64,000 bases of DNA from an uncultured Gemmatimonadaceae bacterium (GCA_963829055.1 CAWHHI010000020.1:128001-192000); one strand, 5' to 3'; counted from the first letter of the stretch, positions 1-7,004 are shown. Numbers and translations are program-made. Notes: generated by a model not told the origin, from the letters alone.

Positions 1-155
1 GCTGCGGATTCGCTTCCGTCCACACGTGCGGCGACCCGCAACACGGATTCGATTCGCCGTGCCCTGGGCAACAGGACTACGCAGGCGAGGATCCACGCCA
101 GTGCAATGAATCCACGGCGGCGAACGATGATCGCCGCGAGCGTCGCGCCGCTCAT
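1..155 (-). CDS. MMPL/RND-family exporter, N-terminal fragment (runs off the left edge)
   Basis: Hand translation from ATG 155 (ATGA overlap with the upstream stop) gives MSGATLAAIIVRRRGFIALAWILACVVLLPRARRIESVLRVAARVDGSESA. The basic patch, TM helix and GSES motif are typical of MMPL N-termini. Confidence 0.55.
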   Translation of the reverse strand, partial: MSGATLAAIIVRRRGFIALAWILACVVLLPRARRIESVLRVAARVDGSESA

Positions 156-1280
156 ACGAGCGCGATCTCGTAGTGCAGCGGCCTATCCGCCAATGATGGG
201 CCAGCGTAGTCGCCGCTCGTCGTGTAGATGAAGGCGTTGACGTCCGTCGGTTGCGCAAAGAGCCCGTTCAACGCGGCGCAGAGAGGGTCGCGCACATCCA
301 AACCGATGGTCGCGAACGCATACCCAGCGTCGCGCAGCTCGGCGTAGCTCGAGCGCACCAGCGCTCTCAGCACCTCCGGTGCTTCACCCGGAACGCAAAC
401 GTTGTACGCCGTGCAGTAGGGCAGCAATTCGCCCACGTCAGGGAGCAACATACCCTGCGTCACAGTCGCCGCACCGTTCAGCAGCGCGCGCGCAACGCGA
501 AGTCGACGTGAGTAACGCATAACGCGCGATTGCTTGAAGGTCGCCTGGTCCCACCAGGCCATGAAGCCGACCAGCCGGCCGGTCGCATCGCGCGCCAGGC
601 GATAGCTCGAGATGTCCAGGCCAGGTGCGCTCGCGATCCAGCTCGCGAACGTTGCGGCGGTGAGCACCGGTGTGAGTTGACGCGTAGGACCCACTCGGCG
701 CCAGAGCTCCAACATCTCGTCAATGTCGCGCGATGTCGCCGTCGAAACTCGCAAACCACTTTCCTTGAACGCACGAGGAAAGAGCAGCGGTATGGAGAAC
801 GCGCGAATGGTCGCGAAGCGCGCGACGCCCGGCGTCGTTCCTCGCCCGGATGTTCGGCGCTCCATCGCGCGGTTTCCGGCGAGAACGGTGAGCAAGATCG
901 GCGTGTCGGGGCCGCCCATGTCGAGAAGCGCGGCCATGGTCCATCTGATAAGCGCGTCAGCGACCCCGGTACCGCGCATCGTCGGAATCACCTTGAGATC
1001 GCCCGCATAGAACGTCCGCCGCTCGACGCCGTGCAGATACGCGCTTCCGCTCGGCGCCCATCACACACCCGACGACGCGCCCATCGACCTCGGCAACGCC
1101 GACGCGCCACTGATTTCCCTCGAGTCGATTGAGCTGGAAGAAATCGGGATCCCGCGTTATGCGGAGGGTGATGTCACCTTCCATTGGACACGAGGCGGCG
1201 ATCGCTCTGAGTGCCGCATCGTCATCGTCCACGGCGTCACGCACCCGGACGCTCGTGGCCGACATCGCCGTCGCCGTCAT
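152..1280 (-). CDS. GNAT-fold acyltransferase (tandem GNAT), frameshifted near 1045
   Basis: ORFs 957..1280 and 152..991 join. GNAT motif-A-like segment GDLKVIPTMRGTGVADALI. ATGA overlaps at both ends. Confidence 0.7.
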
Positions 1281-2456
1281 TGATGCGACTCAGCACGAAC
1301 GCGACACAATGCGAACCGACGCTGCACCACGCTGCGGTCGCGCCGCATCATCGTTTCTCCACGCACTCGGTCTTCTGTGATCACGTGCTGGAAACGCGGC
1401 GGGACTTCCGTCCACCCGACGAAGTTCCGAAAGCACAGCGTCGCATTCGGCGCCGCGGTGCGAACGATCTCCGCAAACAGCAGGTCGACGTCACGCGGCT
1501 CGATCCACTCGCAGATATTGGAGATCGCGAATCCCGTCACGCTCCCAGCGGGAAGACCGCGGAGGTGATCGGTGATCGTCCCGTCCACGAGCGTCAGTCG
1601 TTCGCGCGACGTCGCTACCGACGCGCACGCCTCCGTCACTGAGGTATGGCGGCACGCCGCCGGCGGCGTCCACCGGGTATTGGCCGGTGAGCATGTGATG
1701 CAGGAAGTAATTGTCCCGCACCGACAGCTCCGTCAGCGCATGCTCGGCCTGCGAGCGGAAATGGTCGGCGAAGCTCGGTCGCTCGAGGTGCGCGAAGAAC
1801 GCGGGGTCGTAGGCCCGTCGGAAGACAGCCCGATTCAATAGCAGATGAAAGAACGCGCGCCACCTGGCGGTATTCCATTCGCTCTCGAAGAGCGAGCGTT
1901 GCACGTTCAGGGTGTCGGACGCAAGCATGCGCTCGATGCGCGCGCGCGGATGCACAGCAACGCGTAGCATCCGCACCACCGTTCGGATGAAGCGCTCGGT
2001 CACACCGGCGTTGAGCACGCCGTCGGCAATGCCCAGGCGGTGTGCGTCCCAATACGCGAGCGCCGGTTGCGTGAGACCCGCGCGCAGCTCTCGTACGCCG
2101 CAAGGCGCGCCCGGCGCCGAGCCGGGTGTTGCACCGAGGAACGCGAGCGACTCCGCCCGTGAAAGCACGGTCAGCGCAGCGACCTTGAGCTCGATGAGAT
2201 GATTCTGTGTGCGATTGACGTCCACCGCGGTGACGTGACCGACGCCCGCCGCGAGCAGTGAGAGCGCCGTGCAACCGCCCGAGCCCACGATGACGATGGA
2301 GTCATCCGGACCAGGCGCCAGCGCTTCGATCTCGAGCCGCGGATCCTCGCGCACCTGCGCGAAGTACAGGCGGTCGTCCACAGCGCTGGGCAACGAGAGC
2401 CGCTTGACGTGCGACGCGGCCTGCGCGGCGGTGACCGGAGGTGTCAGGACGCGCAT
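1277..2456 (-). CDS. BtaA/DUF3419-like SAM-dependent 3-amino-3-carboxypropyl transferase, frameshifted near 1640
   Basis: Motifs LYFAQVREDPRLE, VGSGGCTALSLL, AVDVNRTQNHLIELK, DNYF and, in ORF 1277..1639, SNICEW, matching the DUF3419/BtaA family pattern. Start ATG 2456. Confidence 0.75.
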
Positions 2457-4930: not shown

Positions 4931-6030
4931 GCGACCCTCGCGATCGGACTCGCTGCGCCCTGTGCGTGCATGTGATCGAGCATCGGGATCCAGAAGTCGC
5001 GGACGGGTGGCGCGCCACGACCGAGCAATGCTTCGGCGTTCGTCGTGTCGAAGCGCTTGGGCAGGGCCAGCTGCGGGACGAAGTGCGACAGCGCTCCCGC
5101 TATCCGCTTGAGCGACGCGTCACCGACGTCGGCGATCGTGCGCTCGAACAGCGAATACGTCGCGAGGTCCGTGATGGCGGGCCGAACGATCCCACGTTTG
5201 CGCCACGCTGGGTTCGTGGCCCAGCGCTCGTACGTGATGTCGAGCAGCTCGACGAGTGGCAGCGCGCCTTCACCCGCGCAGAGGTGAACCACTTTCCCAG
5301 CGGCGTCGTCGCGCAGCGCGAGCCGAGCGATGCCGTCGGCGACGAACGATGTCGTCACGGCGTCGACGGTGGAGCCCACGACGCCGGGCATCATCGCCAC
5401 CAATCCGTGGCGATAGAGATTGAGAGCACGATGCACGGCGTTTGTCTGCGTGACCTGGCCGGAAACGTCGTCGCAGACGACGGTGCTCGAGCGGAGGATG
5501 ACCCAGCTCGCCGCCTGGTCCATCACGAGTCGCTCGGCCTCGTACTTCGACTGCTCGTAGGCGTTCACCCAGCCGGCGTTCGCGGCGTGGAGATCTTCGG
5601 CGATCACGCCTGTCCGCCGACCAGCCACGAACGCCGTGCTGACGTACGCCACGCGCACGGGCGTTTCGCAATCATCAGCGATCTCCAACACGCGCTGCGT
5701 GCCGAGCGTGTTTACGGCGCGCGCGCGATCGAGCGGCGACGAGAACGTCGTGTCGGCGGCGAGATGAACGATCGCCGTCACGTCGCGGCAAATCGCGGCG
5801 CGCGCGTTAGGCTCGATGCCGAGCCCGTCGGCGCAGAGATCGCCGTGCACGGGGATGACACGACTCTGCTTGCCGAGCTCGCGTGCTGTGCGACGCCAGC
5901 GGTCGACGTCGCGCACGAGCACGAAGGCGCGGAGCCGGGAATCGGCCGCGAGCAGGCGCGCCAGCACGTCGCGGCCGAGCAGGCCGGTGGCGCCGGTGAC
6001 GAGAATCGAATGATCGGCGGACATGGTCAT
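4927..6030 (-). CDS. Thioester reductase / fatty-acyl reductase-type extended SDR (NAD_binding_4)
   Basis: ILVTGATGLLG, IVHLAA, VNTLGT, YVSTAFVAG, NAYEQSKYEAE. Start ATG 6030 overlaps the upstream stop. Confidence 0.8.
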   Translation of the reverse strand: MTMSADHSILVTGATGLLGRDVLARLLAADSRLRAFVLVRDVDRWRRTARELGKQSRVIPVHGDLCADGLGIEPNARAAICRDVTAIVHLAADTTFSSPLDRARAVNTLGTQRVLEIADDCETPVRVAYVSTAFVAGRRTGVIAEDLHAANAGWVNAYEQSKYEAERLVMDQAASWVILRSSTVVCDDVSGQVTQTNAVHRALNLYRHGLVAMMPGVVGSTVDAVTTSFVADGIARLALRDDAAGKVVHLCAGEGALPLVELLDITYERWATNPAWRKRGIVRPAITDLATYSLFERTIADVGDASLKRIAGALSHFVPQLALPKRFDTTNAEALLGRGAPPVRDFWIPMLDHMHAQGAASPIARVA

Positions 6031-7004
6031 GCCTCCAACGCCAGCGCCGTCCAGTGCGCGCCGTAGCCGTAAGAGAAAAGGAGCAGACGATCTCCGGGAC
6101 GCACGCTTCCGTCGCTCACCGCGTCGCGCAGATTGATGAAGTTGTCGCCGGCAAGCGTGTGTCCGATTCGCGCGATGTTCCGGCACCACAGACGCTCGCG
6201 TGGAATTCCCGTGAGGCCAAGCAGGATCTCCCAGCTGCGGATGCTGATGTTGTGGGGGATCACCCAGGTGACTTCGTCGGGGCGCCACCCCGCGCGTCGG
6301 AGCGTCTCCGCGATCACGTGCTTGGCGGTCGGGAAGTACGACGCGACGATCTCGTTGCGCATCGCGTCTCCCTGCCAGTAGTAGCCCTTGGTCGTGTGCG
6401 CCGACGCGAGAATGCGATTACGATCGGCGTTGTGGTCGACGAGCACCGCGCACGCCGCGTCGGCGGTGCAGTTGTAGATCGCCTCGCGGCCTGCGCCGAC
6501 GGGAAAGAACTCCGACGACACGCAGAGCACCCGTCGCGCATCTCCCGTTTCAACGAGGGCGCGCGCGACGCGCACCGCGCTGAAGAGCGACGTGCACGCC
6601 AATTGATCGAGCGCGAAGGTGGACGCGCACTCGAGGTCGAGGTCGTACTGCAGCCGCGTTGCGGGATACTGAAAGCGTTGCGTGCTGGAGATGTGACTCG
6701 TTGCGTCCACGGCGCTTCCGGCCGGCGCGAAAGCGACCGACGGCGTGCCGCAGTACAGCAGCGTATCGATGCTGTCGGGCGCGACGGAGTATTCGTGCAG
6801 CAGCGCCCTGGCCGCTTCGAGGGCCAGCGAGTACGGAGTCTCCTCTTCGGCGACGTACACATGGGAGAAGCCGAACTGTTCGAGTAGCGCGGGATCGCTT
6901 TCGAGCTGTCCAAGCGCGTGGAGCTCGCGCAGCGAGCGCCGTTGCGCAGGCAGCGCATACGCGATTGCGGAGATGCCAGCGATTCCGGGCGTCACGGCGG
7001 TCAC
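6027..7004 (-). CDS. KAS III (FabH)-like condensing enzyme with Cys-His-His triad
   Basis: QLACTS, ADAACAVLV, VIPHN, IGHTLAGD, GYGAHW. GTG 7004 is preceded by AGGAG. Confidence 0.8.
   Translation of the reverse strand: MTAVTPGIAGISAIAYALPAQRRSLRELHALGQLESDPALLEQFGFSHVYVAEEETPYSLALEAARALLHEYSVAPDSIDTLLYCGTPSVAFAPAGSAVDATSHISSTQRFQYPATRLQYDLDLECASTFALDQLACTSLFSAVRVARALVETGDARRVLCVSSEFFPVGAGREAIYNCTADAACAVLVDHNADRNRILASAHTTKGYYWQGDAMRNEIVASYFPTAKHVIAETLRRAGWRPDEVTWVIPHNISIRSWEILLGLTGIPRERLWCRNIARIGHTLAGDNFINLRDAVSDGSVRPGDRLLLFSYGYGAHWTALALEA

Follow-up and report, generated by a model that had tools for sequence, protein, structure and literature searches.

A conserved Gemmatimonadaceae operon around a SerRS-like amino acid:carrier-protein ligase and the N-acyl-glycinol lipid it may build

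Amino acid:carrier-protein ligases are relatives of seryl-tRNA synthetase (SerRS) that were described in 2010, and in a commentary their role is only predicted from neighboring genes (PMC2922099). What such an enzyme may do for its host is the question raised by an operon at one end of a 64,000-nucleotide stretch of DNA from an uncultured Gemmatimonadaceae bacterium (GCA_963829055.1, CAWHHI010000020.1:128001-192000), referred to here as the window. The operon comprises nine minus-strand genes running from position 7004 to position 1, which encode, in this order, a protein resembling β-ketoacyl-acyl carrier protein synthase III (KAS), a reductase of the short-chain dehydrogenase/reductase type (SDR), a carrier protein (CPa), the SerRS-like ligase, two ferritin-like proteins (FER1 and FER2), a DUF3419/BtaA-like transferase, a GNAT acyltransferase and an MMPL-family exporter. 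Seven of the eight gene junctions overlap, five by 4 nt and two by 13–14 nt, and the sole non-overlapping one, between ligase and FER1, is a gap of 22 nt that adjoins two indels. An earlier note, made from the sequence of the window, had listed at least nine co-directional genes in this order with nearly universal overlap of start and stop codons; all nine genes, their families and the overlaps were found as described.

We give a probability of about 0.5 to the reading that the operon is a conserved pathway which builds and exports a glycine-derived lipid by way of an N-acyl-glycinol, the product itself being a prediction. The route would be a thiotemplated one, and the chances are roughly even that it works like the terminal module of a nonribosomal peptide synthetase (NRPS), with condensation, adenylation, carrier and reductase functions supplied by non-NRPS parts. 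The evidence consists of gene identities, motifs, folds and co-occurrence, from which we infer every substrate and the order of the steps.

In this favored model the ligase would first load glycine onto CPa, a step for which the chemistry of the family is known and the choice of glycine is suggested by the binding pocket. KAS, acting as a Cys-His-Asp acyltransferase, would then move a fatty acyl group from acyl carrier protein (ACP) to the nitrogen of glycyl-CPa. FER1 would oxidize the CPa-bound intermediate, possibly by N-hydroxylation, and FER2, which appears to be dispensable, would modify the acyl chain on ACP; these two are the weakest steps of the model. The reductase is predicted from homology to release the N-acyl-glycinol, a compound of the N-acylethanolamine type, by four-electron reduction, as MxaA does for myxalamid. 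The DUF3419 protein would place a 3-amino-3-carboxypropyl unit from S-adenosylmethionine (SAM) on an oxygen of the N-acyl-glycinol, a position that relatives would methylate, and GNAT would acylate the new homoserine amine to give a two-tailed, phosphorus-free aminolipid for export by MMPL. The earlier note's outline of loading, acylation, oxidation, reductive release, aminocarboxypropylation, further acylation and export fits the comparative evidence, except that condensation is disfavored for KAS.

The order of the operon is not due to chance, because 30 of 80 genome loci, collected with a ligase alignment, contain all nine genes arranged in this way. A colinear part is present in 30 others, mostly cut by contig ends, the genes are rearranged in nine, and the ligase stands alone in 11. 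Conserved synteny, on which the earlier note had made its reading depend, is thus present. The cluster family spans Gemmatimonadota, Actinomycetota (including the Krasilnikovia isolates L103, L105 and L119), Acidobacteriota and Pseudomonadota, and close homologues of the ligase carry the source label Gemmatimonadaceae. The spread is patchy: with the genome of the window (G000) excluded, a FER2 match (E 1e-20) is found in 6 of 70 genomes of the family and in 0 of 230 other genomes of the phylum sampled. No plasmid carrying the actinobacterial FER2 was found.

Three cluster types can be distinguished. Type 1 is the arrangement of the window. Type 2 has the order KAS-SDR-CP-ligase-class I methyltransferase (MT2, PF12147)-FER1-FER2, with FER2 fused to ACP, a fusion seen in genus-mates; a type 2 paralogue, about 40% identical, is present in the window's own genome (G000:C3:348600-354140, L035) and also in six of six genus-mates searched. 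Type 3, mostly with the order (acyl ligase)-KAS-AurF-CPa-ligase-SDR-PPTase-FER2-ACPb, where PPTase is a 4'-phosphopantetheinyl transferase, is hosted by Actinomycetota (including the three Krasilnikovia isolates), Acidobacteriota and Alphaproteobacteria and occurs in metagenomes. An AurF-type cluster at L135:4514-10815 has no CPa and no ligase in the locus (acyl ligase-ICMT-KAS-AurF-SDR-FER2-ACP); the ligase might be encoded at another place or not be needed there, and this would bear on the pathway model.

The core across the family consists of KAS, carrier, ligase, reductase and diiron enzymes, while the SAM enzyme is exchangeable. The latter was followed in 94 loci with KAS, SDR and ligase, from which two duplicates had been taken out and which still include several near-copies and are hence not independent. 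The SAM enzyme is BtaA-like in 52 of these loci, of the ICMT/PEMT type in 17 and MT2 in 10. Exactly one is present in 79 loci and two are present in none; each of the 15 loci without any is truncated by the end of a contig. On a KAS tree, obtained by a quick search with SH-aLRT support only and containing several long branches, the label of the SAM enzyme changes seven times; for ICMT and BtaA-like, branches with good support require at least 3–4 of the changes.

Ligase, KAS and reductase

The cluster ligases are 297–307 residues long, compared with 522–527 residues for SerRS chains, and correspond to the methanogen-type catalytic core without the tRNA-binding domain. The best solved relative of the window's ligase is Bll0957 (Table 1), and the ligase gene adjoins that of the carrier with its attachment serine; CPa gives weak DltC-like matches in a family-profile search. 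Residues C119, E164 and C266, which we take to be zinc ligands, are invariant in 25 of 25 ligases and align with the PAACY, MRE and TGCVAFG motifs of Bll0957. Two residues past C266, Ala268 is found in 105 of 109 cluster ligases and makes a C-x-A pocket like that of Bll0957 (CVAFG). Non-cluster ligases have Ala at this position in 3 of 17 cases and Gly in 12 of 17, and Gly (C-x-G) is also the residue of methanogen SerRSs and of a ligase from Rhizobium.

Bll0957 is presumably a glycine ligase in which the alanine narrows the pocket. Because the C-x-A pocket is shared with Bll0957, glycine is the likely substrate of the cluster ligase, more likely than serine, although this depends on the presumed rule that links alanine at this position to glycine specificity. 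The earlier note had a SerRS-like ligase load a small amino acid, and this remains the prediction, refined to glycine over serine. The ligase scores 179.7 bits against the equivalog cut-off of 357 bits for NF005479, and because of this score and the missing classical neighborhood it is best described as a separate subfamily that would work like an amino acid:carrier-protein ligase. A canonical SerRS is encoded elsewhere in the genome, complete on contig C16, and a second, frame-broken match to canonical serS lies at a contig start (G000:C19:3-867). A ligase with 49% identity in a Bdellovibrionota record (L064:8852-10885) adjoins a fusion of hexapeptide acyltransferase and carrier, with none of the other genes.

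In KAS the position of FabH Asn274 is aligned to His, and the GNT motif is replaced by GH in 92 of 92 homologues. C137, H282 and D287 are likewise present in all 92, so that a His-x4-Asp dyad is invariant. With the Cys-His-Asn triad missing and a TIGR00747 score of 67.5 against a cut-off of 292 bits, a FabH-type initiating KAS III was rejected. The spacing of C137, H282 and D287 equals that of the Cys113/His296/Asp301 triad of ChlB3, and such enzymes form C-N, C-O and C-S bonds according to PMC9573744. Because of the change of the FabH Asn to His and the invariant His-x4-Asp, acyl transfer with formation of an amide appears more likely than condensation. From the earlier note's condensation by a KAS III-like enzyme, the KAS fold is retained and the FabH-type chemistry is given up.

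Several observations count against reading KAS as a transacylase and nothing else. The condensing DpsC has a His-His pair, and ChlB3 is listed with Phe266 for His266 of DpsC in PMC9573744. Position 251 of KAS was equated with this residue 266 by numbering and not by direct alignment; it is occupied by His in 64 of 65 homologues of the FER1 type and by Gln in 27 of 27 of the AurF type. The polar His/Gln stands at the position of FabH His244 and, with an invariant Asn252, resembles the DpsC pair. In addition, the top PDB matches of KAS by profile are FabH enzymes, ranked over ChlB3 (E 7e-19).

These residues, His/Gln251 and Asn252 together with His282, agree with a Claisen reaction, the alternative closest to the earlier note, in which KAS would join a fatty acyl group to the alpha carbon of N-oxidized glycyl-CPa, and four-electron release would yield a 2-N-substituted 3-oxo-alkan-1-ol. 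This is a sphingoid-base skeleton made without pyridoxal phosphate (PLP), which GNAT would N-acylate and DUF3419 would furnish with a head group. Decarboxylation would be unnecessary, in line with the loss of the FabH Asn, but the invariant His-x4-Asp is typical of transacylases. In three Gemmatimonadales loci (L056:13571-16853, L094:14737-18019 and L052:12726-13784) spt, bCerS-like and CerR-like genes adjoin the cluster in a head-on orientation, and no bCerS-like gene was seen in G000; the three loci are relatives, however, and may represent one event. The route further provides no enzyme for reducing the N-oxidized group to an amine, and GNAT is unrelated to the bCerS-like protein and is lost when ICMT or MT2 replaces the BtaA-like protein. 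We consider the Claisen route distinctly unlikely. Its full form, a PLP-independent sphingoid-like pathway with a nitronate-type carbon nucleophile made by a diiron enzyme, a C-C bond formed by KAS, release as a 1-ol and conversion by DUF3419 and GNAT into a homoserine-headed, phosphorus-free analogue of ceramide, is highly improbable; if true, the ExxxH site of FER1 would define a diiron class of its own, new to the field.

The reductase, which in the favored N-acyl-glycinol model ends the carrier-bound stage, shows the traits of R domains of NRPSs and polyketide synthases (PKSs), namely the NAD_binding_4 fold and S/T with YxxxK. At least 95% of the 76 rows of an alignment conserve its S131, Y158 and K162. 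The best solved relative is the R domain of MxaA (E 4.1e-17), and the next is a fatty acyl-CoA reductase (E 1.8e-10), a resemblance that weakens the assignment; the TIGR01746 score of 109 is under the cut-off of 213. In all three cluster types the reductase adjoins CPa or the ligase, as an adenylation-thiolation-reductase (A-T-R) unit would. The terminal A-T-R module of MxaA gives N-acyl-alaninol in the case of myxalamid.

Diiron proteins and the tailoring block

The model of FER1, with a predicted local distance difference test (pLDDT) score of 91, is most similar to stearoyl-ACP desaturase (Z 18.9, root-mean-square deviation 3.2, 235 residues aligned), followed by R2lox (Z 17.7) and AurF (Z 12.1), and its profile matches DesA2 (E 1.1e-8). 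E54, E81, E84, G85, H88, E138, E168, H171 and H202 are invariant in 59 of 59 sequences. The first motif reads E-G-F/L-K/R-H, with Gly in place of the usual bridging Glu in all 59, and E81 and H202 are extra invariant residues. FER1 shares the overall fold of the soluble acyl-ACP desaturases, but not their two ExxH motifs. No Pfam AurF match is obtained at E 0.1, and FER1 has Ile where the AurF ligand pattern has its third His, four residues ahead of the final Glu.

The type 3 counterpart of FER1 is AurF-like (PF11583, E 1e-32 to 1e-36) and has HHxxExxH in 30 of 30 sequences. FER1 and AurF are present in 66 and 32 of 159 loci and never together. Their shared place beside CPa and the ligase and their mutual exclusion suggest that FER1 does the same job as the AurF-type enzyme on the CPa-bound intermediate, an equivalence drawn from gene position only. 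The absence of the first bridging Glu and of the AurF third His, and a fold nearer to acyl-ACP desaturase than to AurF, count against it.

The AurF-type relatives also allow an enteromycin-like route, which we regard as unlikely. In it FER1 or AurF would N-oxidize glycyl-CPa to a nitronate or oxime, the SAM enzyme would O-alkylate it, and a CerJ-like KAS would transfer it to a fatty alcohol, which the SDR would supply in the role of a fatty acyl reductase, the product being a long-chain ester of modified glycine. Exactly one SAM enzyme per cluster would suit this route, although ICMT/PEMT-fold enzymes are membrane proteins and a poor fit to carrier-bound glycine. The SDR does match fatty acyl-CoA reductase, but is nearer to the MxaA R domain and lies beside CPa or the ligase, not beside FER2-ACPb, in types 1 and 2. 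The HHxxExxH enzymes adjoin carrier and ligase as required, whereas FER1 lacks the third His. Glycine, a diiron oxygenase and an O-methyltransferase for the nitronate form a cassette described in PMC9967187, and CerJ transfers an acyl group to a hydroxyl according to PMC9573744.

Under the N-acyl-glycinol model, FER2 would act on the acyl chain. The G005 orthologue, from a genus-mate, has conserved ligands and a model with pLDDT 92, and its best fold matches are a ferritin-like protein of unknown function and aldehyde-deformylating oxygenase, both with Z 17.4. Fusion of FER2 to, or its adjacency with, a fatty acid synthase (FAS)-like ACP in types 2 and 3 points to acyl-ACP as the substrate. 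In AurF-type clusters FER2 is followed by such a FAS-like ACP, the second of the cluster, and a long-chain acyl ligase is often present too; the cluster of the window lacks both this ACP and an acyl ligase and has lost its PPTase to a deletion, which weighs against the model. An alkane-forming deformylase paired with the reductase was rejected for FER2, since the fold match is tied with unrelated ferritin-like proteins and the ligase would be left unexplained. Five type 1 loci (L053, L054, L069, L078 and L099) lack FER2, and in them FER1 is followed directly by the BtaA-like gene, and this gene loss argues against an obligate FER1-FER2 heterodimer.

The DUF3419 protein of G005 scores 214 bits over positions 8–383 of 385 of PF11899, and the family member of the operon is about 29–30% identical over its full length to the product of a Sinorhizobium meliloti gene that precedes a class I methyltransferase (btaAB arrangement). 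The gene is the only copy in the genome, and a PDB search found no solved structural relative. No btaB is found beside it in the operon, where GNAT is next, and in the 94 loci a BtaA-like gene never occurs with MT2 or ICMT. GNAT follows the same pattern: a BtaA-like gene is present in 45 of 46 GNAT loci, and GNAT never occurs with ICMT or MT2. In the simplest reading, DUF3419 would add an aminocarboxypropyl group and GNAT would acylate its amine; methylated variants would need no GNAT, because no new amine arises. The BtaA-like, GNAT and MMPL genes make up a tailoring block that can be exchanged and does not belong to the core.

Aminocarboxypropyl transfer by the BtaA-like protein, which the earlier note had proposed, gains from the full-length DUF3419 identity and is weakened, not refuted, because its place is taken in relatives by a methyltransferase of the ICMT/PEMT type or of class I. 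Several points tell against it. The identity to the Sinorhizobium BtaA-like protein is only about 29%; DUF3419 takes the place of methyltransferases in relatives and could itself methylate; and of the seven loci with a BtaA-like gene but no GNAT, four hold short, divergent actinobacterial forms (the other three lie at contig ends). DUF3419 could then be a methyltransferase on the same core, with GNAT acylating a hydroxyl or serving self-protection, and the product would be a small secreted ether of an acyl amino alcohol, a signal or antibiotic, and not a membrane lipid. The strict mutual exclusion with two methyltransferase families and the patchy spread among the 70 family genomes are consistent with this, as is the difficulty, stated in PMC11869996, of predicting aminocarboxypropyl activity from a sequence. 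We nevertheless hold it to be quite improbable, given the full-length alignment with the Sinorhizobium protein and the way in which GNAT tracks DUF3419 and never the methyltransferases, as expected for acylation of a newly added amine.

GNAT has a weak match to N-myristoyltransferase (E 0.03). It was rejected as a ceramide synthase, as it shows no similarity to the bCerS-like protein of L056, for which its profile gives a score below zero; that protein has its label from the place of its gene beside spt. As regards the bacterial ceramide pathway, the operon contains no Spt and its GNAT is not of the bCerS type. Another GNAT of this family, with 32% identity, is located at G000:C18:86825-87745 (L201), at the end of a long open reading frame (ORF) with an RnfD-like membrane stretch; a Rieske oxygenase-like gene adjoins it and an acyl-ACP desaturase-like gene lies about 5 kb off, both labels coming from reading of the translations. 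A radical SAM/SPASM gene directly follows GNAT in 16 loci (e.g. L026:13561-14532) and is not present in the window. An operon of Brevibacillus laterosporus (L204:1-10101) encodes HMGR-like, UbiA, dikinase-like, DUF3419, unassigned membrane, GNAT and AMP ligase proteins; its core differs, but it has the same BtaA-like/GNAT pairing together with an acyl ligase, and the scanned ORFs include no BtaB.

Gene map, frame breaks and neighboring genes

Table 1. Genes of the operon and the adjoining PPTase remnant in the window.
Feature	Position	Strand	Evidence
KAS III-fold enzyme, Cys137/His282/Asp287 and His251	6027..7004	-	PF08541/PF08545, NCBIfam
Stand-alone thioester reductase (extended SDR, NAD_binding_4)	4927..6030	-	PF07993, E 7.7e-41
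Carrier protein CPa, attachment site Ser43	4643..4930	-	PF00550 above cut-off; S43 conserved
Amino acid:carrier-protein ligase, truncated methanogen-type SerRS homologue, probably glycine-specific	3763..4656	-	NF005479, E 6.5e-53; PDB Bll0957, E 3.5e-39
FER1, ferritin-like diiron protein, acyl-ACP desaturase/R2lox fold, non-canonical E84-G-F-K-H88	2991..3740	-	structure model
FER2, small ferritin-like protein, complete E / ExxH / E / ExxH set	2444..2994	-	G005 orthologue: Pfam COQ7/AurF/Ferritin
DUF3419/BtaA-like SAM-dependent transferase	1277..2456	-	PF11899 across whole model
Tandem-type GNAT acyltransferase (377 residues in G005)	152..1280	-	Pfam Acetyltransf
MMPL-family exporter, 5' end	1..155, running on to ~G000:C20:125845 left of the window	-	PF03176, both halves
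PPTase remnant, internal deletion of ~540 bp	7001..7190 (approximate)	-	tblastn with G005 PPTase

In the assembly of the window FER2, the BtaA-like gene, GNAT, MMPL and the last codons of the ligase are frame-broken, with single breaks near 1636 in the BtaA-like gene, near 1043 in GNAT and in MMPL. Contigs of four public runs, which represent other strains and not this genome's own reads, were aligned to positions 1–7400 of the window. Those of near-identical strains show compensating indels at 1043, 1636/1637, 2654, 2843, 2860, 3745 and 3774; the MMPL break lies outside the region covered by this alignment. In the genus-mate G005 every gene is intact, at about 74–88% identity, and MMPL is one protein of 775 residues. 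The frame breaks are most likely assembly errors. The earlier note had called for polishing of the assembly and for its extension to the left; MMPL was traced beyond the window (Table 1).

The internal deletion in PPTase is a real lesion, which leaves only the two ends of the gene and is common to near-identical strains, and contigs of runs X6 and X8 cross it with only 2–3 single-base gaps. Residues 188–209 of the G005 PPTase match positions 7089–7154 (tblastn), and the DNA match picks up again at 7157–7273. Many relatives have an intact PPTase gene upstream of KAS. The broken frames of five genes and a real deletion might be taken as signs of a decaying pseudo-operon, which is scarcely credible: at seven break positions compensating indels occur in independent contigs, breaks are also abundant in the paralogous cluster on C3, as an error-prone assembly would give, and the genome encodes two further PPTases elsewhere. 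Short contigs of the metatranscriptome run X19 cover several operon genes, although contigs are no measure of expression.

A scan of the operon region for promoters and terminators gave a signal no better than that of shuffled sequence. In relatives, the CBS-domain gene that lies to the left of MMPL is not a conserved downstream neighbor. Upstream of the operon are a hydrolase of the proline iminopeptidase family (7760–8662) and a frame-broken TonB-dependent receptor-like gene (8955–12070), neither of which is conserved beside the cluster in the relatives inspected.

Comparison with known systems

Every part of the operon belongs to a known fold or family, and the combination is without a description that we could find; no paper on this gene set was found in a literature search that left out most subscription journals and is thus a weak negative, and the earlier note had likewise recognized no characterized pathway. 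For an enzyme that loads amino acids and is related to SerRS, the operon suggests a function that can be put to the test, within a self-contained, multi-phylum pathway in which each step can be assayed and of which a version exists in the Krasilnikovia isolates. If the N-acyl-glycinol model is correct, an NRPS-like module would have been rebuilt from an aminoacyl-tRNA synthetase homologue and a KAS-fold amide synthase, a BtaA-family reaction would take place on a non-glycerol acceptor, two unstudied ferritin-like families would gain functions, and soil Gemmatimonadaceae would contain a new class of lipid detectable by lipidomics.

The proposed logic of N-acylation on a carrier and reductive release to an alcohol would be shared with the myxalamid module and with acyl amino alcohols of the columbamide/serinolamide type. 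Unlike myxalamid-type modules, the operon contains no NRPS domains; a ligase like an aminoacyl-tRNA synthetase stands in for the adenylation domain and a KAS-fold enzyme for the condensation domain, all as stand-alone proteins. With the BtaA/BtaB pathway to diacylglyceryl-trimethylhomoserine (DGTS) the operon shares a full-length DUF3419 protein. It differs in having no BtaB, in the coupling to GNAT, in an acceptor that is probably not diacylglycerol and in the methyltransferases that substitute in relatives.

The ligases Bll0957 and Atu2573 and their carriers are described in PMC2922099 and PMC4849084. They have in common with the window's enzyme the truncated methanogen-type SerRS core, the Cys/Glu/Cys motif, an adjacent carrier and, for Bll0957, the C-x-A pocket. 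The classical neighborhood of such ligases consists of acyl-CoA dehydrogenase, DUF1839 and glycoside hydrolase genes, whereas that in the window consists of KAS, reductase, diiron enzymes and a SAM enzyme. The window's KAS shares the Cys + His-x4-Asp triad with ChlB3, CerJ and DpsC, and is set apart by the His/Gln at the position of FabH His244, by a distant sequence and by an acceptor that is only predicted.

Carrier-bound glycine (predicted here), a ferritin-like oxygenase and a SAM enzyme are shared with the enteromycin/akazaoxime cassette, most clearly in the AurF-type relatives; that system uses an adenylation domain and a modular NRPS/PKS, and a stand-alone KAS, a reductase and a second ferritin-like protein are not described in the accessible part of PMC9967187. 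The bursatellin bur-ox system of molluscs (PMC11869996) is a precedent for the last steps, since an alcohol released by an R domain is there converted to an aminocarboxypropyl (homoserine) ether with SAM. The proposed logic of an N-acyl amino acid, four-electron release and O-aminocarboxypropylation would be the same in both systems, while bur-ox has its own features in the use of tyrosine, a formyl group, a true NRPS and an isonocardicin-synthase-like transferase acting on a phenol.

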